From a virus (Duplodnaviria > Heunggongvirae > Uroviricota > Caudoviricetes): a stretch of 6,239 nucleotides of DNA. How positions within the stretch are numbered: position 1 is the first letter of the stretch; the number at the start of each line of letters is the position of its first letter. The DNA is taken from IMG/VR virus record IMGVR_UViG_2706794664_000014; one strand, given 5' to 3'. The position numbers were made by a program, and so were the translations under genes. Shown piece after piece: positions 1 through 6,239 of this stretch. The notes beneath the pieces are model-generated. The model was not told where the DNA came from, searched no databases, and saw only the letters and a program-made list of their open reading frames with translations.

Positions 1-664
1 CTGTGTTGTTCTGAGGTGAGCATATCACCTCTGTTCAGGTGGCCAAATTCAGTGTGCCACTTCACTTAGCAGCACCTAAGCAACAATTGACTAACAGATT
101 CGGTAGAGTCTATCTCATAGGTCAACTTCATAAACTCAGAGCTAAGTTACCTTGAAAGATTCTACCAAGAACTACACAGGTGTTATTTAGTCTGACTGTG
201 AAGGGATATTTAACGGGAGAAGAGATACGATATAACCCGAAGGGAGAGTATCATCTTAACAATTATCTTAAGAATAAAAACTGAAAAACTCTTAACAGAT
301 AACCACCTAGAAAGAAGGGAACGATAAGACCAGAGGTAGTGACCTGTTAAACAGGCTGTTTCAAAGTCTCTTAAATAAGTAAGGTCATGTGAACAATCTT
401 ACCATTTTGTCAATGCTTTTGTCTTTGACCTAAATCAATAAAATGTATCGTTTGATATGCTTTTAAACAAAATAGCTAAAAAATCTTTTTTTAGAGGGGC
501 GCTTCGCTTGGGGTCACTATGAATGATTTTTCTCTCGCTAAGAGAGCGCTTACAGAGGTCTTTCAAATCTCAATAGCCAGCCGAGGAACACAGGAAACCG
601 AGGGAAGAAAAACTATTGTGATTACCTTGAACAAGGTCTGTAAAGGTCGTTTAAGAGGTCGGTT

Positions 665-856
665 NNNNNNNNNNNNNNNNNNNNNNNNNNNNNNNNNNNN
701 NNNNNNNNNNNNNNNNNNNNNNNNNNNNNNNNNNNNNNNNNNNNNNNNNNNNNNNNNNNNNNNNNNNNNNNNNNNNNNNNNNNNNNNNNNNNNNNNNNNN
801 NNNNNNNNNNNNNNNNNNNNNNNNNNNNNNNNNNNNNNNNNNNNNNNNNNNNNNNN
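665..856. other. Run of 192 N (unresolved or masked sequence)
   Basis: Directly visible N-run; nothing inside can be annotated. Six-frame ORFs crossing it (poly-X translations) are artefacts. Confidence 1.
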
Positions 857-939
857 TTACTGTCAGAGAGGCGAATGCTTGATAGATACAGCTTTCCGGT
901 TCTGTCAAGCTATTTTTTAATAGATAGCACAAAATGCTA

Positions 940-1016
940 AAGACACCCCTGTACCATAGACTTCTATCTGTCATCTCGTGCAGGGGTTTTGAAGGAGTTT
1001 AACGGGGGTCTGTGTG
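940..1016 (+). repeat. Degenerate or partly deleted copy of the intergenic inverted-arm element (hairpin plus right-arm remnant)
   Basis: 997-1016 gtttaac-gggggtctgtgtg matches the right arm of copy 1 (gtttaac...gaagaggtctgtgtg) with about 21 nt missing. 10-mer ggtctgtgtg is shared between 1007-1016 and 1282-1291. The acccctg motif (945-951) recurs in the spacer of copy 2 (tacccctg, about 2902-2909). 7-bp stem acccctg/caggggt at 945-951 and 981-987. Confidence 0.35.
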
Positions 1017-1175
1017 GTCGTTATCCTTAAGGTCAAGCGTCCATGTACGACCGAACAGTTTAAAGACAACAAGCACTCTGACGAGGACGTAGCGAAGTAG
1101 CAGGCCTGCAATCAGCCCAATACCTCCACCAGTCCATACATCAGGTGACCCCAGCTCAGGAGGGAGATTTACCAT
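999..1175 (-). CDS. Hypothetical small membrane protein (58 aa, one predicted hydrophobic helix)
   Basis: Only open frame in this GC-richer island. Minus-strand ATG at 1175-1173 preceded by AAGGA with a 6-nt spacer. Translation MVNLPPELGSPDVWTGGGIGLIAGLLLRYVLVRVLVVFKLFGRTW... contains a transmembrane-like stretch. The 110-aa form from 1331 would run across the conserved intergenic repeat, so the short form is preferred. Coding status unproven. Confidence 0.3.
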   Translation of the reverse strand: MVNLPPELGSPDVWTGGGIGLIAGLLLRYVLVRVLVVFKLFGRTWTLDLKDNDHTDPR

Positions 1176-1189
1176 TAGTTTTCCTTGTA

Positions 1190-1287
1190 AGACGCTCTCA
1201 ATCGCATTCTGACACAAAAAGTACCTGACCTTATGAGTTGACCTGAAGAGGTCGTTTAACTCGTTACAGGGCGATTGAAGAGGTCTG
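1190..1287 (+). repeat. Intergenic inverted-arm element, copy 1 (left arm 1190-1221, variable centre 1222-1253, right arm 1254-1287)
   Basis: Left arm agacgctctcaatcgcattctgacacaaaaag matches 2831-2862 at 30/32. Right arm gtttaactcgttacagggcgattgaagaggtctg matches 2918-2951 at 31/34. The arms are inverted relative to each other (ctcaatcgc versus gcgattgag; terminal cagac/gtctg). Internal direct repeat gaagaggtc at 1245-1253 and 1277-1285. Confidence 0.7.
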
Positions 1288-1346
1288 TGTGCAATGCAAA
1301 ATATGCGACCAAATACATAGCCACGCCTCATATTTTACTCTCCCCA

Positions 1347-1606
1347 NNNNNNNNNNNNNNNNNNNNNNNNNNNNNNNNNNNNNNNNNNNNNNNNNNNNNN
1401 NNNNNNNNNNNNNNNNNNNNNNNNNNNNNNNNNNNNNNNNNNNNNNNNNNNNNNNNNNNNNNNNNNNNNNNNNNNNNNNNNNNNNNNNNNNNNNNNNNNN
1501 NNNNNNNNNNNNNNNNNNNNNNNNNNNNNNNNNNNNNNNNNNNNNNNNNNNNNNNNNNNNNNNNNNNNNNNNNNNNNNNNNNNNNNNNNNNNNNNNNNNN
1601 NNNNNN
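1347..1606. other. Run of 260 N (unresolved or masked sequence)
   Basis: Directly visible N-run; it hides the 5' part and start codon of the gene ending at 2039. Confidence 1.
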
Positions 1607-1607
1607 G

Positions 1608-2039
1608 AACATTGAAGCGGTCATTCGTAGCATTACGCCACGAGACAGATTTATGCCAGTACGCAAAACAACAAAGAATACTATTAAAAATTATCTGGCT
1701 AACTTTGACAGTTACGAGCAGTTACCAAGCAAGCTTGATGATGTTTTTATTGGGTTCTGTAGAAGTGAAGGCCACCCGAAATACAACAAAAAACTATTTT
1801 ATCTGCTAAAGAATCTTGACGAAATTAACGCATCCACCGTGACAAATCATCTTCAGCGACAGGCAACCAGACTTAGTTACGAATTACCAAGCGATAAATA
1901 TTGCGCTTTGCTTGCTGTGATGTGCGCGAAATTAATTGGCATTGTTGAACATCATATTGCCGTTGGGAATATTGAGCCAATGGAAAACGAGCAACCAGAT
2001 TTCGAGTTTGACCCCTATTTAGTTACAGAGGATTTTTAA
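1608..2039 (+). CDS. Hypothetical protein, 5'-truncated by the N-run (visible C-terminal 143 aa)
   Basis: Open frame from the first resolved codon (1608) to TAA at 2037-2039. Stop is immediately followed by the ATG of the next gene (translational coupling). Start lies in or before the gap; candidate starts TTG 1275 and GTG 1289 sit just after the GAGGTCTG motif but frame continuity across the gap cannot be verified. No recognisable family. Confidence 0.55.
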   Translation, partial: NIEAVIRSITPRDRFMPVRKTTKNTIKNYLANFDSYEQLPSKLDDVFIGFCRSEGHPKYNKKLFYLLKNLDEINASTVTNHLQRQATRLSYELPSDKYCALLAVMCAKLIGIVEHHIAVGNIEPMENEQPDFEFDPYLVTEDF

Positions 2040-2318
2040 ATGAATAAACACACATTAACCAGAGTTACAAAGACAGCCTTTGATGAACTGAACCGAATCA
2101 AAAACATTACAGGTCTGCCACACTCAGCAGTGATGAAGCTTGCAATTAACCGTGATATTAACGAACAGGATTTGCTTAATAGTCGCTTAGAGGCTGCAAG
2201 ACACCATATCAGGATTAAGCAAGATGACCTTGATAGTCTGAAATCCTTAAATGCTTTTGGACTGGATTTAGCAAGGTTACTAAGTATCAAAATTCACAAA
2301 CTGTCTCAGGAGGTCTGA
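2040..2318 (+). CDS. Small DNA-binding-like protein, possible ribbon-helix-helix (Arc/MetJ/CopG-type) regulator, 92 aa
   Basis: ATG 2040 directly after the upstream stop; SD AGAGGA at 2027-2032 with 7-nt spacer. N-terminus TLTRVTKTAFDELNRIKNITGLPHSAVMKLAINR fits a beta-strand / helix / turn / helix pattern typical of RHH folds. Pattern-based only, no search run. Confidence 0.5.
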   Translation: MNKHTLTRVTKTAFDELNRIKNITGLPHSAVMKLAINRDINEQDLLNSRLEAARHHIRIKQDDLDSLKSLNAFGLDLARLLSIKIHKLSQEV

Positions 2319-2320
2319 TT

Positions 2321-2593
2321 ATGAAGCAATGGCGAGATGATATTAAACGGTTCTTTGCAACTTACTTCATGATTAATTATGAGACAGGAATGCTTGAATG
2401 GATTGATGGTGGAGAGGTTAAGACAAGAGATGATGCTTACGGTAATCCAATGATTCGTTATGGCACTCGTGATTATTATCTGAAGTATGTCATCTGGTTT
2501 TTGCATCATGAAGTTCAGGCAACTAAAAAGATTATCTTCAGGGATGGTAATAAAAGAAATTGCCACCCAAACAATTTACTCCTGGAGATTTAA
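2321..2593 (+). CDS. HNH-like small protein (90 aa) with a divergent HNH_3-type C-terminal motif
   Basis: SD AGGAGG at 2308-2313, 7-nt spacer, ATG 2321. C-terminus YLKYVIWFLHHEV...KKIIFRDGNKRNCHPNNLLLEI resembles the DGNK-x-NN...NL signature of phage HNH_3 homing endonucleases as I recall it, but the His usually preceding DG is replaced by F-R, so catalytic competence is uncertain. Confidence 0.5.
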   Translation: MKQWRDDIKRFFATYFMINYETGMLEWIDGGEVKTRDDAYGNPMIRYGTRDYYLKYVIWFLHHEVQATKKIIFRDGNKRNCHPNNLLLEI

Positions 2594-2793
2594 TGTTATG
2601 TATTAAATTCGAATATTTGACAGATAAAATGATTAAGCATGTATCAGACCTGCTCATCAAAGAAGGTGGTTTCGGTGATGCTTGCAATCCAAAAGATATC
2701 TTCATTCATGCCACCAGCCCAAACGCAACACTAAAGACAGCAGTTACAGCGGAATGGTTTGAACGAAATAAAGCGGAATTAGGTTATTGGTAG
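2593..2793 (+). CDS. Hypothetical small protein (66 aa)
   Basis: ATG 2593-2595 overlaps the upstream TAA (TAATG coupling); GGAG at 2584-2587 with 5-nt spacer; open to TAG at 2791-2793. The six-frame track starts this ORF at 2560, but the RBS supports 2593. Confidence 0.45.
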   Translation: MLCIKFEYLTDKMIKHVSDLLIKEGGFGDACNPKDIFIHATSPNATLKTAVTAEWFERNKAELGYW

Positions 2794-2830
2794 TCCGAGA
2801 CTTTAAGAGAAATTAGAAAAACAGCTTATC

Positions 2831-2951
2831 AGACGCTCTCAATCGCATTCTAACGCAAAAAACTATCTTATTTTAGGGTGGGTAATACCACTGTACAGGC
2901 TACCCCTGAAAAAGACTGTTTAGCTCGTTACAGAGCGATTGAGGAGGTCTG
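2831..2951 (+). repeat. Intergenic inverted-arm element, copy 2 (left arm 2831-2862, variable centre 2863-2917, right arm 2918-2951)
   Basis: Arms near-identical to copy 1 while the centre differs in sequence and length (55 versus 32 nt). As RNA the arms could pair into a roughly 17-bp imperfect stem (cagacgctctcaatcgc with gcgattgaggaggtctg) plus a further taacg/cgtta extension. Confidence 0.7.
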
Positions 2952-2971
2952 GTAAAAAGGAGATTTTAAAA

Positions 2972-3295
2972 ATGAACGAATATGAATTACAGATTTTCAT
3001 TGATAGCGACACTGCTATGATGGTGCAGGCTTTCGCTGATTCCGGTGTATCAATTGACCTTGATAAATTACTAAAGCTAATGGCTGAAAACTCAGAAGAA
3101 ATTGAAGACTTTATTCAGGAAATTGAAACTGGTGAACCGCGTTTTATGTTTCCTGTTACCGACTCAAACATGAAGCGTCTTATTATCGAAGAAACGAACA
3201 AATACAGCGTTAGCCCTGAAAAATATCTCAAGGCGGCTATAGCAATTTTGTATAGCGATAATATTCTGGTGACGGATTCGAAGGTGGTGCATTAA
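2972..3295 (+). CDS. Hypothetical acidic small protein (107 aa, about 21 Asp/Glu versus about 10 Lys/Arg)
   Basis: ATG 2972 preceded by AAGGAG at 2958-2963 (spacer about 8 nt). The track start TTG 2939 lies inside the repeat arm and is probably not used. Open to TAA at 3293-3295. No recognisable family. Confidence 0.6.
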   Translation: MNEYELQIFIDSDTAMMVQAFADSGVSIDLDKLLKLMAENSEEIEDFIQEIETGEPRFMFPVTDSNMKRLIIEETNKYSVSPEKYLKAAIAILYSDNILVTDSKVVH

Positions 3296-3360
3296 TGGAA
3301 TTGGTGATTATCTGTTTTGTATTGATTGGTATGATTGCAGGTGCATCTATTAAAGTATAA
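3295..3360 (+). CDS. Putative 21-aa hydrophobic peptide (MELVIICFVLIGMIAGASIKV)
   Basis: ATG 3295-3297 overlaps the last base of the upstream TAA; strong SD AAGGTGG at 3281-3287 with 7-nt spacer; single hydrophobic helix-length peptide; TAA at 3358-3360. Below the ORF-track cutoff, found by reading the sequence. Confidence 0.3.
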   Translation: MELVIICFVLIGMIAGASIKV

Positions 3361-3384
3361 ATGTTACCAATCTGTTAAAAGCTG

Positions 3385-3413
3385 TTGACAAACAACCTTG
3401 AGCATGACATAAT
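3385..3413 (+). promoter_or_regulatory. Sigma70-type promoter: -35 TTGACA (3385-3390), 17-bp spacer, extended -10 TGaCATAAT (3405-3413)
   Basis: Consensus -35 hexamer, optimal 17-bp spacing, -10 CATAAT preceded by TGn, AT-rich upstream region. Predicted start around 3420. Confidence 0.5.
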
Positions 3414-3425
3414 TGTATATATGGG

Positions 3426-3450
3426 GGAGAGCAATTCTCTCTTATTTTTT
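3426..3450 (+). promoter_or_regulatory. Promoter-proximal hairpin plus U-tract (GGAGAG-caatt-CTCTCT then tatttttt)
   Basis: 6-bp stem with one G-U pair, 5-nt loop and a T-run, about +6 to +30 from the predicted start. Candidate pause or attenuation element. Confidence 0.3.
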
Positions 3451-3582
3451 CTTTCAATAATCCGATGGATGGATATTCTGAGTTGGAAAGGTGCAATGCT
3501 TTTCGTCCTAGCCTTTCAGGTTGGTCTGAGAGGCTATCTCAAAAAGTCTTTGTTCATTCATTATTGAATCCTTTACAGCTTT

Positions 3583-3610
3583 GCCCTAATCATGAGTTAG
3601 GGCTTTCTTT
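3583..3610 (+). terminator. Candidate intrinsic terminator (stem gccctaa / ttagggc, 7-nt loop, tttcttt)
   Basis: 7-bp perfect stem at 3583-3589 and 3597-3603, followed by a T-rich tract at 3604-3610, about 190 nt downstream of the predicted start. Confidence 0.45.
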
Positions 3611-3680
3611 AAGAGTTTTTAAACAGAGCTTTTAAAGAAAGTTTTCCTGAAACTTCGTTAACGTTATAAGCAAACCTCCA

Positions 3681-3717
3681 AAGCCCTTCACAGATTATGT
3701 TTAGGGCTTTTCTTAAT
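3681..3717 (+). terminator. Second terminator-like hairpin (aagccct ... agggctt then ttcttaat), related to the first
   Basis: Shares ttagggcttt(t)ctt with the 3583-3610 hairpin; 7-bp stem with a 15-nt loop. Also overlaps a long-range inverted repeat, ttaatagagcatc (3712-3724) with ggtgctctattaa (3769-3781). Confidence 0.3.
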
Positions 3718-3810
3718 AGAGCATCTTTAATAAATCGTTAAGTCATCTTCTAAGTGTATTGGCGTTGAAGGTGCTCTATTAAGAAATAACCACACTTAGA
3801 GGAAATTATA

Positions 3811-4521
3811 ATGACAAACGATTTATATATTAACGGTAAAAAGGTTGATAGCTTCGGAGACTGGTCACCACAGGGTGAACATCCGCTACATACTATTCAG
3901 CGTCAAGAGCATGACAAGCGCATTGAGCTTGAGCAAGAGCTAAAGATGTCACCAAAGGTAATTTCCTTTGTGTCTCCTGAGCCTCAAGAAATGCCTGATA
4001 TCTGCAAAACTGAAGCACTATTTGAGCTTGAGCGTGAATATTACCCAGCTTTAAAATCACAGCGTCTTAGACTTGATGTCGCTTACGATGCTGTTAAGAA
4101 CTTCGAAGAAACCTCGAAACCTTCAGAATATGATATTGCTTACGAGATTAAGTCAAACCCGTTTATCTATTATGAAGGAAACTTTAATGATGGTTTTGGT
4201 ACAGCGATTGAAGACGTTCCTAAAGTTCTTCAAAGTATCCCTGAAGGGTTCCGGTTAATTGATGTCAGACAAGCATTAAGGGGTTCTGGTCAATTTATTC
4301 TGATGACTGATAAAACAGATGAAGAGATTCTTCAGTTAGCTGAAGCTAATTTGACTAAGCATTATTCCGGTAAACTGGATAAGTTAAAGCAAAAGCTTAA
4401 AAAAGAACTTGATACTATGAAAGAACTTGTTAGTGAATATGAGTCGCAGAAGAAGATTGCTTTGATGGCTGATATTGAGCAGTTAACGAAGATTTCTCAG
4501 AAGTATAGCAAGGCTGTTTGA
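3811..4521 (+). CDS. Hypothetical protein (236 aa) with a coiled-coil-like, Lys/Glu-rich C-terminus
   Basis: ATG 3811 preceded by GAGGA with 7-nt spacer; long uninterrupted frame to TGA at 4519-4521. No recognisable family. Sits upstream of the tape-measure-like gene, so a tail-module role is possible but unsupported. Confidence 0.7.
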   Translation: MTNDLYINGKKVDSFGDWSPQGEHPLHTIQRQEHDKRIELEQELKMSPKVISFVSPEPQEMPDICKTEALFELEREYYPALKSQRLRLDVAYDAVKNFEETSKPSEYDIAYEIKSNPFIYYEGNFNDGFGTAIEDVPKVLQSIPEGFRLIDVRQALRGSGQFILMTDKTDEEILQLAEANLTKHYSGKLDKLKQKLKKELDTMKELVSEYESQKKIALMADIEQLTKISQKYSKAV

Positions 4522-4543
4522 TTATGAATTAAAGAGGTGATTA

Positions 4544-4753
4544 ATGTTTGAAGAACGTTTAGAGACTATTCGGTCTGTTTGTGAAAACTTAAAGTTACAA
4601 ACTAAGCCAGCCTTAAGAATTAAAAACAAACGTCAAGTTATCACCTCACACAAACCAAAAACACGCAAGATTCCAAAGTGGTGTATTGACCGTATTCCTT
4701 CTGATGCTCAAATCATAGGTGAAACGGAATTACATTATCTTGTCCGACATTAA
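4544..4753 (+). CDS. Hypothetical small basic protein (69 aa)
   Basis: ATG 4544 preceded by AAGAGGTGA; the 12-mer ttaaagaggtga (4529-4540) recurs exactly at 4889-4900 upstream of the next gene. Lys/Arg-rich. TAA at 4751-4753. Confidence 0.55.
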   Translation: MFEERLETIRSVCENLKLQTKPALRIKNKRQVITSHKPKTRKIPKWCIDRIPSDAQIIGETELHYLVRH

Positions 4754-4777
4754 AAAAGAATTGGTTGGGTAAATACG

Positions 4778-4819
4778 GGGAGAGATTATCGAGTGACATC
4801 GGTAGCTCTCCCTTTTTTT
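4778..4819 (+). terminator. Rho-independent terminator (stem gggagag / ctctccc, loop about 21 nt, then ttttttt)
   Basis: 7-bp GC-rich stem at 4778-4784 and 4806-4812 immediately followed by a T7 run at 4813-4819, 25 nt after the stop of the upstream gene. Confidence 0.6.
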
Positions 4820-4909
4820 GTATGTGTGCTACGTGAAATCTGTAAAGCTAATACCCACACTGAAAAATAGAATTTACGTACAACACGCTTAAAGAGGTGA
4901 AAAATATGA

Positions 4910-6187
4910 ATGGCACAATTTAAAGTTGATGATTTTCTGATTGAGTTAAGTTTTAACTCTCAGAAAGTTTTAAAAGGCTTGGAAAAAGCCGAGAAACAAA
5001 CGATGCAGGTAGCATCACGAATTGAGAAGCGATTGAATAAGTCGTTTAGAGTTAATCCTACGCCTTTAAATGATTCTCTCAAACTAATGGAAAGAAATGT
5101 CGATAAAACTGTTTCCAAGATTGAGCAGCGTCTTAAAAACACTAGAGCGTTTAAGATTAAAACTGAAATTGAGGATACTTTAAAGCCACTTAGACAACCA
5201 AGACAGCCACGAATTAGCGGAAGCAGAGCAATCACAGCAGCTTACTCAGCGAATATGAGCAAGCTTCGTGACTTTAATCCTATGCTTGAGAAGTATTTTA
5301 AAAGCCAGTATTACAGCTTAAGCAGTAAATCCAAGACACTTGGAAACGAAACTTTTAATCGTGAGTTAGCAAAGTTAAATCAGTCTCTTCGTGAAACACT
5401 TTCTAAGTTTAACAAGACCACCAGCAAAAATAATCACAGTGAAAATGCTTCAAATAGTCTGGATGTATTAGCTACGAGTGCAATCAAAGCAGGTACAGCC
5501 ATTTATAGTTTTCAGACAGCCTTAGAAGCTTACAGGCGGATTATGGAGGTTGGTCTGAAAAAAGAAGCATCACAACGAGCGGCACAATTCGTTTTAGGTG
5601 ATGAAGGTGCTAAACGAGCTACAGAATTTGTTAAGAATCTTGCTGATAGTAGTGGTGTAGACCAGATTGAAACATTAAGCAGTTTTGCTAAGTTTTCCGC
5701 TGGTGCTGGTGATATGAATGCAGACCAGAAAGAATCCTTATTTTCTAATGTGATTGGTACATCCAGATTAATGGGGCTAAGCACCGATGAAATTAACGGG
5801 ATTTTAAAAGCTTTCGAGCAGATGGCATCTAAAGGAAAGATTCAGGCTGAAGAGCTACGCGGTCAATTAGGTGACAGAATGGCAGGTGCTTTTCAGTTAT
5901 TTGCCAGAAGTCTTGGGATGACTACGGAAGAATTAGACAAGGCCATGAAAGACGGTAAGATTCTTTCTAAAGATGTTCTTCCTAAAGTATCCGCTGAAAT
6001 GGGAAGGATGATTGATAAAGCTGGTGGATGGGAAAAGATTATTAACTCTACTCAGACGCAGTTAGGCCGCTTAAGTAATTCATGGAATAATAATCTGGCC
6101 TTAATGTTCGATGGTTCACAGGAAGGTTTAACAGACTTTACAAGGTCACTGACTAATTTACTTAATTCACTAAATAGCTGCGCTTAA
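4910..6187 (+). CDS. Phage tail tape-measure-like protein, N-terminal portion (425 aa)
   Basis: SD GAGG at 4894-4897, ATG 4910. N-terminus MAQFKVDDFLIELSFNSQKVLKGLEKAEK follows the pattern of the lambda gpH N-terminus as I recall it. Residues about 300-370 (GILKAFEQMASKGKIQAEELRGQLGDRMAGAFQLFARSLGMTTEELDKAMKDGKILSKDVLPKVSAEM) match the conserved tape-measure domain motif from memory. Low-complexity coiled-coil stretch between. Needs HMM confirmation. Confidence 0.7.
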   Translation: MAQFKVDDFLIELSFNSQKVLKGLEKAEKQTMQVASRIEKRLNKSFRVNPTPLNDSLKLMERNVDKTVSKIEQRLKNTRAFKIKTEIEDTLKPLRQPRQPRISGSRAITAAYSANMSKLRDFNPMLEKYFKSQYYSLSSKSKTLGNETFNRELAKLNQSLRETLSKFNKTTSKNNHSENASNSLDVLATSAIKAGTAIYSFQTALEAYRRIMEVGLKKEASQRAAQFVLGDEGAKRATEFVKNLADSSGVDQIETLSSFAKFSAGAGDMNADQKESLFSNVIGTSRLMGLSTDEINGILKAFEQMASKGKIQAEELRGQLGDRMAGAFQLFARSLGMTTEELDKAMKDGKILSKDVLPKVSAEMGRMIDKAGGWEKIINSTQTQLGRLSNSWNNNLALMFDGSQEGLTDFTRSLTNLLNSLNSCA

Positions 6188-6204
6188 TACCGCTACACTT
6201 TTGC

Positions 6205-6235
6205 CAGCCCATGTTTGCCTCCGGGGAATGGGCTG
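6205..6235 (+). other. GC-rich hairpin (cagcccat / atgggctg, 8-bp stem, 15-nt loop) 18 nt after the stop codon
   Basis: Perfect 8-bp inverted repeat at 6205-6212 and 6228-6235. Local GC is about 60% against about 38% for the window. Window ends before any T-tract could be seen. Confidence 0.4.
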
Positions 6236-6239
6236 ACGG

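Follow-up and report, generated by a model that had tools for sequence, protein, structure and literature searches.

Antisense control of ColE2 replication has been known as a plasmid copy-number device since the 1990s. ColE2-type plasmids use both strands of a single palindromic segment of ~100 nt: one serves as the 5′ leader of the regulated mRNA, and the other one is a small antisense RNA which pairs with this leader and blocks translation. The initiators of ColE2-like plasmids carry the domain pair Replicase and PriCT_1, and RNAI binds the 5′ UTR of the rep mRNA (PMC6856555). This binding has been described together with control regions that are self-contained, exchangeable modules (PMC5304414).

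We analysed a DNA stretch of 6,239 nt from the viral record IMGVR_UViG_2706794664_000014 (the window), in which two hairpin elements, A and B, bracket a block of four genes. With moderate confidence, we assign A and B as two paralogues of a portable hairpin for sense/antisense RNA control belonging to the family of the ColE2/Col156 RNAI and rep-mRNA leader (incA).

Organization of the locus

The window represents an IS-truncated integrative island of ~11 kb which encodes serine recombinases, a tape measure and a Dit-like protein. The original prediction placed two copies of the element at 1190-1287 and 2831-2951, and they are present exactly there. Their arms were said to be nearly identical and their centres unlike. 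The direct repeats 1184-1220/2825-2861 (37 nt, 89% identity) and 1254-1287/2918-2951 (34 nt, 91% identity) indeed enclose unrelated centres of ~33 nt in A and ~57 nt in B. The 21-mer AGACGCTCTCAATCGCATTCT occurs without mismatch in both left arms and nowhere else in the window (two matches were obtained in 0/200 shuffles), GCGATTGARGAGGTCTG is also identical in both elements, and 26 of the 28 bases compared in the right arms are the same. The arm ends read AGACGC...GGTCTG.

The proposed inverse complementarity of the arms was confirmed by RNA folding, which gave long, nearly perfect stems of >20 bp with small internal loops for both copies. The plus strand folded slightly better than the minus strand in both A (−36.7 kcal/mol, z −3.55, vs. 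−33.2) and B (−51.6 kcal/mol, z −7.34, vs. −46.5). The arms of B pair in 4 bp, a 2x2 internal loop and 10 bp with one G-U, and those of A in 4 bp, a bulge, 4 bp, a bulge and 7 bp. Scanning the window with a covariance model produced exactly two matches, A and B, with forward scores of 95 and 104 bits vs. reverse scores of 14.5 and 35 bits, respectively. The features of the locus are:

999-1175, minus strand: gene of a 58-aa single-TM protein, whose RBS and ATG GTA AAT start adjoin A (ORF; annotated CDS in L017, gene call in L024 and L035)
1190-1287, plus strand: element A, a 98-nt hairpin cassette in RNAI-like orientation (repeats, fold, covariance model, 48 orthologous copies in related islands)
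1190-1220, plus strand: left arm of A, composed of the family core M1 (ACGCTCTCAATCGC) and then the 5′ strand of the inner helix S2 (ATTCTGAC) (30/33 to plasmid L045; phage matches of 23-24 nt)
1240-1253, plus strand: apical mini-hairpin of A, GACCTGAAGAGGTC, with a 5-bp stem and a 4-nt loop (fold, sequence reading)
1254-1287, plus strand: right arm of A, made up of the 3′ strand of S2 (CTCGTTACAGGGC) and then the M1-pairing tail GATTGAAGAGGTCTG (repeats, fold)
1305-1324, minus strand: terminator-like hairpin and U-rich run between the predicted leftward promoter and A (terminator and promoter scans)
1348-1606, no strand: N-masked stretch, in relatives back-to-back sigma-70 promoters and the 5′ end of the 185-aa gene (comparison with relatives)
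1608-2039, plus strand: unmasked C-terminal portion of the 185-aa gene, with which the bracketed block begins (ORF, relatives)
2040-2318, plus strand: 92-aa gene (ORF; no family match)
2321-2593, plus strand: 90-aa HNH-like gene, whose placement relative to the next gene varies among islands (weak HNH_3 match)
2593-2793, plus strand: 66-aa gene (ORF, relatives)
2793-2830, plus strand: conserved left flank of B (GTCCGAGACTTTAAGAGAAATTAGAAAAACAGCTTATC), also found at the inverted copy C of other islands (relatives)
2831-2951, plus strand: element B, a 121-nt forward, intercistronic hairpin cassette (repeats, fold, covariance model, conservation)
2972-3295, plus strand: 107-aa gene, always directly 3′ of B or of the alternative spacer D (island comparison)
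3295-3360, plus strand: hydrophobic ORF of 21 aa, in overlap (TAATG) with the stop of the 107-aa gene (sequence reading; gene call in L032)

The right arm had been described as lying directly upstream of gene starts. This is true of B, which is followed by the ATG at 2972 with its own AAGGAG ribosome-binding site in between, but not of A, on the right side of which ~200 nt with back-to-back promoters precede the 185-aa gene in relatives (this part is N-masked here). The gene that adjoins A is the minus-strand 58-aa gene, and its start region ATTTACCAT (= ATGGTAAAT) is common to the island and the plasmids. The promoters predicted in the relatives of the masked stretch are TTAACA-18-TATAAT, directed leftward into A, and TTGACA-17-TAGTAT/TATTGT, directed rightward. 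In locus L017, the leftward one (11/12 match) points through A toward the 58-aa gene and is followed by a terminator. The minus-strand hairpin with the U-rich run at 1305-1324 is possibly an attenuator. A sigma-70 promoter candidate within A (CTGACA-18-TATAGT, L017) was rejected, as its −10 motif is broken by indels in many copies.

Searches of Pfam, PHROGs, NCBIfam and PADLOC suggested no function for the neighbouring proteins except for the weak HNH match and the tape measure, and the 58-aa protein matched no family in these collections. The 92-aa neighbour, previously considered RHH-like, matched no RHH family in profile searches. Homologues of the 107-aa protein form a very narrow family (18 clusters), so no deep covariation can be drawn from distant islands. 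ARAGORN detected no tRNA in the window.

Homology to the ColE2/Col156 control region

The left-arm core is homologous to a segment of colicin plasmids. It shares 30 of 33 bases with plasmid L045 (local alignment z = 15.7); the alignment with plasmid L047 gave z = 12.7, and the island-plasmid local alignments ranged overall from z 10 to 16. The match covers the 5′ part of a ~100-nt plasmid hairpin; beyond the 33-nt core, the likeness is weak and mainly architectural. BLAST with B reached the plasmid copies at E = 3e-3 in a 28-Gb database. The plasmid element is present in 2046 PLSDB records, 1125 times in full length. In ColE2/Col156 replicons, it lies in antisense orientation ~190 nt upstream of rep, at the position assigned to antisense RNAI in the literature. 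In the ColE9-type plasmid L106, it is located at 3520-3612, again at ~190 nt from an oppositely oriented downstream rep gene, whose product matches Pfam Replicase and PriCT_1. The forward strand of the plasmid element ends with UUCUGACGC...GCGUCAGAA followed by the terminator UCGUUUUU, which identifies this strand as the small RNA. From its position and from secondary literature we infer that this segment is RNAI. No island protein matched the ColE2-type rep domains (Replicase and PriCT_1).

The original prediction was to be refuted by a match to a known family, which is partly the case: the element matches a described plasmid control region, but this region is not in Rfam. The Rfam search gave nothing for the window at E ≤ 1 and no match for the plasmid cassette apart from a weak sub-threshold PK-repBA near the rep start. 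A degenerate-pattern search of genome contigs yielded mostly chance matches in GC-rich coding DNA, and the real ones came only from Escherichia and small ColE2-like contigs. The core was also found in phages. T5-like phages match it at 23/24 nt within the first-step-transfer DNA, the part of the phage DNA to enter the cell first, and jumbo Asteriusvirus phages at 24/24 nt.

Copy polymorphism among the islands

The elements reside in a common, uncharacterised phage-like island of E. coli and Shigella; ~8% of the complete E. coli genomes carry it, and 455 genomes were island-positive. The island has a tape measure and a Dit of its own and is possibly a phage satellite; literature searches found no report of it as a known satellite, and the region 860-3400 had no match among phage records by megablast and blastn.

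A search of relatives for more copies and for variable flanks had been proposed, and both were found. A third copy, C, which is inverted, is present in other islands. In 5426 E. coli genomes, copies occur at three fixed syntenic island positions only, apart from the plasmid homologues. Each copy is found in only about half of the islands. The A site is filled in 48 islands and empty in 29. B (33 islands) alternates with the unrelated, hairpin-rich spacer D (35 islands), which occupies the same place in B-less islands and is swapped jointly with the upstream gene. At the site of C, the alternative is a segment bearing the small recombinase. All A/B presence combinations occur, so no copy is essential and the A-B partnership is not obligatory; the 58-aa gene persists in A-less islands. 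The gene content beside the elements also varies, the order of the HNH and 66-aa genes being swapped and B having three different left neighbours. A and B are co-oriented in each of the 17 loci carrying both. The suggestion that the elements mark boundaries of exchangeable modules is thus valid as a description only: copies are present, absent or replaced with neighbouring genes across the islands.

The empty A site reads TTTCC followed directly by TGTGTGC and shows no target-site duplication. The filled state is probably ancestral since its leader and start codon are shared with the plasmids, and the empty sites are probably palindrome deletions between CT(T)GT repeats.

Covariation and conservation

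In the architecture shared by the family, M1 pairs with the 3′ tail around the inner helix S2, and the helices covary among the plasmid, phage and island versions. S2 appears as GACGC/GCGUC, GGCGC/GCGCC, GACGAG/CUCGUC, AACG/CGUU and AAGCGA/UCGCU. In the family alignment, 76% of the cells are paired vs. 27-46% with slid partners. The covariation score was 0.195 vs. 0.140 in shuffles (reached by 0/500), with six pairs changed on both sides, for a structure derived from the same sequences, which represent few independent lineages. The covariance model built from 16 sequences scored plasmid copies outside the training set at 60-86 bits. RNAalifold found no common long helix in the mixed A/B/C alignment because copy C pairs in a different register. 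The asymmetry of wobble pairs was discarded as a test of the transcribed strand: it first favoured the minus strand, but the frequent T-to-C changes equally fit the plus strand in an alternative register.

The mean pairwise identity of B is 96% vs. 80.5% for the adjacent gene, and its arms are essentially invariant in 44 copies, with two outlier copies. For A, the mean identity is 94.6%, while the 58-aa gene averages 89.7% and the right flank 81.8%; almost all changes in its stem are transitions. The elements are more conserved than the neighbouring genes and are under purifying selection. Together with the homology to the plasmid antisense-RNA control region and the covarying helices, this conservation supports the original proposal of a structured regulatory RNA.

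Discussion

If A and B function as sense/antisense control hairpins, transcription from the predicted leftward promoter would cross A as its reverse complement and continue into the gene of the 58-aa membrane protein. In this minus-strand mRNA, A would form a long leader hairpin and a target for a forward-strand RNA. B would be a forward RNAI-like sequence within the mRNA of the rightward operon, with 20 nt between it and the 107-aa gene, and its transcript would form a stable intercistronic hairpin of >20 bp. Since its arms match those of A at 21/21 and 26/28 positions, B is likewise complementary to the 58-aa gene's leader. We infer transcription of either island strand and a regulatory outcome, which would be a translational block and/or RNase cleavage. 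A has the same layout as the plasmid element, being located in the predicted leader of a divergent gene on the opposite strand to the left, and such an opposite-strand 5′ UTR position is also true of C in other islands. In ColE2-type plasmids, the leader ORF and the rep gene take the corresponding place with respect to RNAI. B, unlike the ColE2 element, is co-directional with the flanking genes and has no opposite-strand gene to its left.

Both A and B lack the U-run terminator (UCGUUUUU), so a forward RNA would be without a terminator; the terminator scan reported none on the plus strand at either element, where the tail reads GAGGUCUG. The promoter scan gave no convincing forward promoter at A or B. 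A −10 candidate, TACCAT, is kept at A without a good −35 motif, and a convincing forward promoter, with an extended −10 (TGTGAATAT), is found only at copy C. The apical loops of A and B differ and the arms are buried in stems, which is unfavourable to the loop-loop initiation typical of antisense pairing.

A less probable alternative is that of passive RNA hairpins which lack an antisense partner and act as processing sites of RNase III or another RNase or as mRNA stabilisers. The long stems with strongly negative z-scores, the intercistronic location of B 20 nt before a gene start, the hairpin-rich spacer D at the same place in B-less islands, and the lack of a terminator and of a clear promoter of their own would all agree with such a role. 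Processing sites, however, require structure and not sequence, yet the arms are near-invariant while the adjacent gene shows ~80% nucleotide identity. Moreover, the same core of 24-33 nt is retained in plasmids and unrelated phages, and A keeps the sense/antisense layout of the plasmids. Passive processing and the antisense control that we favour are not mutually exclusive. It is unlikely that the elements are recombination linkers, i.e. conserved module-junction sequences which promote homologous cassette exchange among islands and phages, comparable to the boundary sequences of lambdoid phages and the PeSL motifs of T4-type phages. The variable neighbours of the elements (the HNH/66-aa swap and the three left neighbours of B), the alternation of B with D and of C with the recombinase segment, and the related copies in T5-like, jumbo and other phages would be accounted for in this way. 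The covarying helices, the conservation of the whole hairpin and the homology to a functional plasmid RNA would be left unexplained, and no inversion was found between the inverted copies C and B, A and B lying on the same strand wherever both are present. An invertible segment of a small serine recombinase was likewise rejected, with no inversion in the 17 loci carrying A and B; the arms are not known to resemble hix/gix sites.

Slightly more doubtful still is a role at the DNA level, with the arms as inverted protein-binding sites or with a cruciform or ssDNA hairpin as a signal in replication or packaging. The arms are conserved in sequence and carry CGC every 10 nt (CGCtctcaatCGCattctaaCGC), and the copy of the T5-like phages is situated in repeat region 3, a part of the terminal repeat rich in protein sites, adjacent to DnaA boxes and a palindrome resembling a LexA box. 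The distance between the arm centres (81 bp vs. 104 bp) is nevertheless out of a common helical phase, the compensatory changes favour intramolecular pairing, and the plasmid homologue has been described as acting at the RNA level. The predicted promoters do not overlap A but lie 55-110 nt to its right, and none is recognisable at B, which makes the paired operators originally suggested less likely. Likeness to MetJ boxes, IHF sites and Ter was limited to matches of short cores. The inverted arms, the variable centre and the clean presence or absence at the A site are reminiscent of a MITE-like palindromic insertion or an attC-like recombination site, both of which had also been suggested. They are very improbable: there is no target-site duplication and no copy outside the island, the three positions are fixed and the filled state is probably ancestral, and neither attC cores (RYYYAAC/GTTRRRY) nor an integron integrase (IntI) or a transposase partner was found, the only recombinases present being serine recombinases. 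We give the least credence of all to a nut-like antitermination site consisting of a boxA-like CGCTCT motif followed by a small hairpin. The forward strand CGCUCUCAA matches the lambda nutL boxA at 8/9 positions, the reverse strand CGCUCUGUAACGA matches the rrn boxA at 10/13, and the mini-hairpin GACCUCUUCAGGUC follows the motif after 7 nt in A. Only the 6-nt core is solid, however; there is no U-rich part of boxA, an N-like protein was not detected, the hairpin engages the motif in base pairs and, in plasmids, the same motif belongs to RNAI.

The hairpin cassette occurs here outside any rep gene, in up to three copies per island, and partially or fully in T5-like, jumbo and other coliphages. 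We read the elements as a novel form of an established antisense/leader RNA cassette. Provided that they are active, the copies would constitute a portable RNA switch reused by different mobile elements and a possible route of cross-talk among plasmids, phages and the satellite-like island. A more speculative idea, to which we assign a low probability, is that the cassette is a shared RNA ‘address’ linking the island to phages and plasmids with the same core. The island would then sense, or be switched by, an incoming element via RNA-RNA pairing, and, within the island, the three copies would couple the divergent operons as an antisense network acting in trans. In that case, phage and plasmid transcripts across the core would be complementary to the island leader and to the intercistronic hairpins. 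Rfam does not contain the family, so that with a curated model >2000 plasmids and several hundred chromosomes would gain an annotation.

Comparison with known systems

The island elements resemble ERIC/IRU (MITE-like) sequences in being imperfect, co-transcribed palindromes of ~100-130 nt whose centres can vary. ERIC sequences are dispersed around the chromosome, whereas the island copies occupy three fixed positions in one island family, and we know of no sequence similarity between them. Similarly, RNase III processing hairpins of the T7 type are paralogous intercistronic hairpins of at least 20 bp with internal loops, which fits B, but the T7 sites are not sequence-conserved across unrelated replicons and have no antisense-RNA homologue. 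A type I toxin-antitoxin system of the hok/sok kind also combines a small hydrophobic protein with a long structured 5′ leader that is overlapped by or complementary to an opposite-strand RNA. In the island, in contrast, an antisense promoter is not evident, the 58-aa gene persists without A and its product has no family match. The exchangeable REx-C replication-control modules of the Pseudomonas PFP plasmids (PMC5304414) belong to another sequence family and other hosts, and they still control rep.

The closest system is the ColE2/ColE3 (Col156-type) control region. The island differs from it in having no ColE2-type rep gene and three copies of the element, one of which (B) is embedded in an operon. 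In place of the plasmid U-run UCGUUUUU stands GCGAUUGAGGAGG, making the closing helix longer, the island lacks ~12 nt between the core and the putative −10 motif, and the putative target of A is a 58-aa membrane protein. The two nevertheless have in common the 5′ core (30/33), one long hairpin formed by pairing of the 5′ motif and the 3′ tail about the inner helix UUCUGACG/CGUCAGAA, the ATGGTAAAT start region, and the position of the regulated gene on the opposite strand to the left, as seen for A and for C of other islands.

Two hairpin elements with common arms

The original observation of a recurring intergenic element was borne out, since the window contains two copies with shared arms and unrelated centres:

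1190-1287, element A, 98 nt
2831-2951, element B, 121 nt

The repeat finder, applied to the window, gave left arms of 37 nt (89% identity) and right arms of 34 nt (91% identity). The 21-mer AGACGCTCTCAATCGCATTCT is identical in A and B and absent from the rest of the window; two matches to it occurred in 0 of 200 shuffles. The right-arm core GCGATTGARGAGGTCTG is identical as well, and the arms of A match those of B in 21/21 and 26/28 bases. The repeat is real and beyond chance. Both elements also fold stably as RNA (A, -36.7 kcal/mol, z -3.55; B, -51.6 kcal/mol, z -7.34), and their opposite strands fold slightly more weakly. The position directly before a gene start holds for B, which is followed by an ATG at 2972 with its own AAGGAG, but not for A. 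In relatives, A is followed by about 200 nt with two back-to-back promoters, and the gene truly abutting it is the 58-aa gene (999-1175, minus strand).

The island carrying the elements

The 107-aa protein encoded downstream of B has counterparts of 100% identity in E. coli and Shigella sonnei, and about 8% of complete E. coli genomes (455 of 5426) contain the region 860-3400. Annotated relatives are integrative islands of about 11 kb with at least three chromosomal insertion sites (between yciI and tonB, within a DUF72 gene, and between ymdF and wrbA). We found no description of the island as such.

Layout of the island, from left to right
Unannotated left region, 1.5-3 kb
Small serine recombinase and/or Dam methyltransferase, in some islands only
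58-aa gene, minus strand
Gene block: 185-aa, 92-aa, HNH-like, 66-aa
107-aa gene
236-aa protein and 69-aa protein
Tape measure and Dit-like protein
Large serine recombinase

Its tape measure shares about 30% identity with that of Felix-O1-like phages, and the island resembles a phage satellite or tail-module parasite. Many of its ORFs have no assigned function (window 65-6172; related loci L013, 17000-28600, and L017, 15400-26600). Island homology within the window extends from 65 to about 6172 only; both window ends (1-64 and about 6173-6239) are foreign to the island and probably IS ends, the left one having what we take to be the look of an IS3-family terminal repeat. At the right window end, the ORF of the tape measure is truncated to 425 aa. 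The foreign ends and the cut ORF indicate that this island copy is IS-disrupted, as expected in Shigella.

Of the two N-masked stretches of the window, one covers a tandem-repeat region and the other the divergent promoters plus the 5' end of the 185-aa gene. In the related locus L005, the segment corresponding to masked window 665-856 (7230-7420, minus strand) is occupied by a tandem pair of roughly 95-nt copies that carry promoter-like TTGTCA...TATATAT motifs. The left region also has two or three occurrences of GGGAGCTTCCC...TCTCCCGCTTAGTG motifs. Islands differ in the order of the HNH-like and 66/71-aa genes, which is reversed between them (window 2321-2793, L005 5243-5742), and a 3' remnant of the HNH gene persists before B, which suggests mobility of a free-standing homing-endonuclease gene. 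The 107-aa gene is overlapped at its stop codon by a 21-aa hydrophobic ORF (MELVIICFVLIGMIAGASIKV, window 3295-3360), whose motif IGMIAG recalls IGLIAG of the 58-aa protein; both products could be small membrane peptides or toxins. Window 3385-3800 contains a near-consensus promoter (TTGACA-17-CATAAT with TG), a terminator hairpin immediately after it (3421-3445), a second terminator (3583-3603), then repeats of the motif TTAGGGCTTTYCTTAA, and an inverted repeat of 22 nt (3709-3730/3765-3786) just ahead of the 236-aa gene; these features suggest one or several small RNAs, or else a second leader structure.

Copies and conservation across islands

For comparison, 104 related loci were gathered from IMG/VR, from E. 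coli genomes and public assemblies, and from a single metagenome scan. Further copies exist, and the adjoining gene content varies: nhmmer detected 49 copies of A, 45 of B and 19 of a third element, C. The last lies within the left unannotated region and is invariably on the other strand from A and B. It has the apex of B and 38 nt of its left flank, and its arms are partly different (AGACGCTCTGTAACGCATTCTAAGCG left, CTCGCTACAGAGCTTTCTATGAGG right). Islands with the small recombinase have another segment in place of C.

Every copy is optional across islands. At the A site, 48 loci carry the element and 29 lack it, the junction being clean (empty TTTCC/TGTGTGC, filled TTTCC[TTGTAAGACGC...GAGGTC]TGTGTGC). 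Upstream of the 107-aa gene, 33 loci have B, 35 have spacer D and two have a divergent variant. Spacer D is hairpin-rich, unrelated to B and accompanied by a different upstream gene. Its positions are 4930-5100 in L014, 10830-11000 in L015 and 5840-6000 in L019/L034, its hairpins being GAGTGAGAC...GTCTCACTC (9-bp stem) and GTAACC...GGTTAC; it is retained even where the island 107-aa protein is only 44% identical.

The elements are under purifying selection. Mean pairwise identity is 96% for B versus 80.5% for the adjacent 107-aa gene at the DNA level; for A it is 94.6%, with the 58-aa gene at 89.7% and the right flank at 81.8%. The B arms are essentially invariant in 44 copies, with arm changes in two outliers. 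Nearly all stem substitutions in A are transitions.

Plasmid and phage relatives

A permissive BLAST search with B, of the kind suggested earlier, revealed left-arm matches in T5-like phages (23/24 bases, intergenic, in the terminal-repeat region named repeat region 3 by Davison), in jumbo Asteriusvirus phages (24/24 bases), in the 46-kb viral contig L047 and in E. coli plasmids. The L047 cassette, too, precedes a leftward operon, one with a gene for a winged-helix protein. In the left terminal repeat of Salmonella phage Spc35 (L043, 1900-2700), a repeat region of T5 type, DnaA boxes adjoin a cassette-like segment, together with a perfect palindrome resembling a LexA box (CTGTATAAATATACAG) and AT-rich palindromes like Fur boxes; the region has the look of a cluster of binding sites for host proteins.

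In PLSDB, 2046 records contain the plasmid version (1125 of them in full length), small Col156-type plasmids among them. A matches the colicin plasmid L045 in 30/33 bases (TAARACGCTCTCAATCGCWTTCTGACRCAAAAA; local alignment z = 15.7). The upstream ATTTACCAT (= ATGGTAAAT), which starts both the 58-aa gene and a short plasmid leader ORF, is common to island and plasmids, and A and the plasmids also have a TGCA...TATGC palindrome just downstream in common. The fold is alike in all versions, with the left-arm core M1 (5') pairing with the 3' tail.

3' tails pairing with M1
Plasmids: AAUCGUUUUUAGGGCG
A and B: GCGAUUGAGGAGG
C: GCUUUCUAUGAGG
Jumbo phage: CGAUUCUAUGAGG

The inner helix shows compensatory changes (GACGC/GCGUC, GGCGC/GCGCC, GACGAG/CUCGUC, AACG/CGUU, AAGCGA/UCGCU). 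In a 16-sequence alignment, 76% of cells were paired versus 27-46% with slid partners, and six pairs changed on both sides. The covariation score was 0.195 versus 0.140 in shuffles (reached by 0/500), for a structure derived from the same sequences and few independent lineages. Rfam, searched with the window, gave no match at E <= 1, and a covariance model built from this alignment found exactly two copies there, the forward orientation scoring far above the reverse. It gave 60-86 bits for plasmid copies outside the training set, 30.6 for a jumbo phage, 27 for a phi92-like phage and only 18-22 for T5-like phages, whose copy is therefore partial. In Escherichia phage EC.P2 (Justusliebigvirus; L042, 1437-1535; 27 bits), an intergenic hairpin TGTAACGAG...CTCGTTACAGAGCC ahead of a gene start has the 15-mer AGCTCGTTACAGAGC in common with the right arm. 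Core sequence homology, a conserved covarying fold and the gene layout were established.

In the ColE9-type plasmid L106, the element (3520-3612) is antisense to rep and lies about 190 nt upstream of it. The plasmid forward strand ends in UUCUGACGC...GCGUCAGAA followed by UCGUUUUU, an intrinsic terminator, and transcription starting about 20-25 nt ahead of the core would yield an RNA of roughly 110-115 nt. ColE2 RNAI is about 115 nt long. The L106 rep product has the Pfam domains Replicase and PriCT_1, the exact pair of ColE2-like initiators (PMC6856555), and ColE2 rep expression is controlled by the antisense RNAI, which binds the 5' untranslated region of the rep mRNA (PMC6856555, PMC5304414). 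On the basis of position and secondary literature, we identify the plasmid element as the RNAI/rep-leader region. Just upstream of the L106 rep start there is a weak, sub-threshold Rfam match to PK-repBA (IncB rep pseudoknot; 3296-3419, minus strand, 23.8 bits, E = 0.005), with the short leader ORF starting ATGGTAAAT upstream of it.

Possible function

In L017, a predicted leftward promoter (TTAACA-18-TATAAT, 11/12, with TG) is followed by a small hairpin with a U-rich run, A, the 58-aa gene and a terminator; the adjoining promoter TTGACA-17-TAGTAT is predicted to drive the 185-aa operon. This arrangement indicates that A is most likely transcribed as its reverse complement within the 58-aa gene leader, and B would be read in the forward sense as part of the rightward operon.

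The element is most likely a portable control hairpin of the ColE2 RNAI type, working through sense and antisense RNA. Since A keeps the plasmid layout, its reverse complement would provide the mRNA of the 58-aa membrane protein with a structured leader, and a forward-strand RNA could pair with this leader and cause a translation block or cleavage. Such RNA might come from A itself or from B within the operon mRNA, owing to its matching arms; C, with its conserved extended -10 (TGTGAATAT), might be the source in other islands. B would also form a hairpin of more than 20 bp between cistrons, 20 nt ahead of the 107-aa gene, and may in this way be an additional processing or stabilising site. We infer transcription, pairing in trans and the regulatory outcome.

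Several findings count against the RNAI-type reading. The terminator U-run of the plasmids is lost in island copies, neither A nor B has a clear promoter for the forward RNA, each copy is dispensable with all A/B combinations existing, and the arms are buried in stems with apical loops that differ between A and B. For these reasons, and because B lacks the plasmid layout and the island lacks rep, rival explanations were kept. The likeliest of these rivals is a passive processing hairpin. A recombination linker is less probable, and a DNA-binding site less so again. The MITE or attC element considered originally is more doubtful still, as no target-site duplication was seen at element sites and BLAST found no copies outside the island in E. 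coli chromosomes. A nut-like site is the least likely of the five.

RNAI-type control remains the preferred reading, by which a plasmid copy-number RNA cassette is reused inside a common, uncharacterised, satellite-like island. The cassette is of further interest because it occurs in several virulent coliphages and is absent from Rfam. The element is a variation on a known element type, not a new type.
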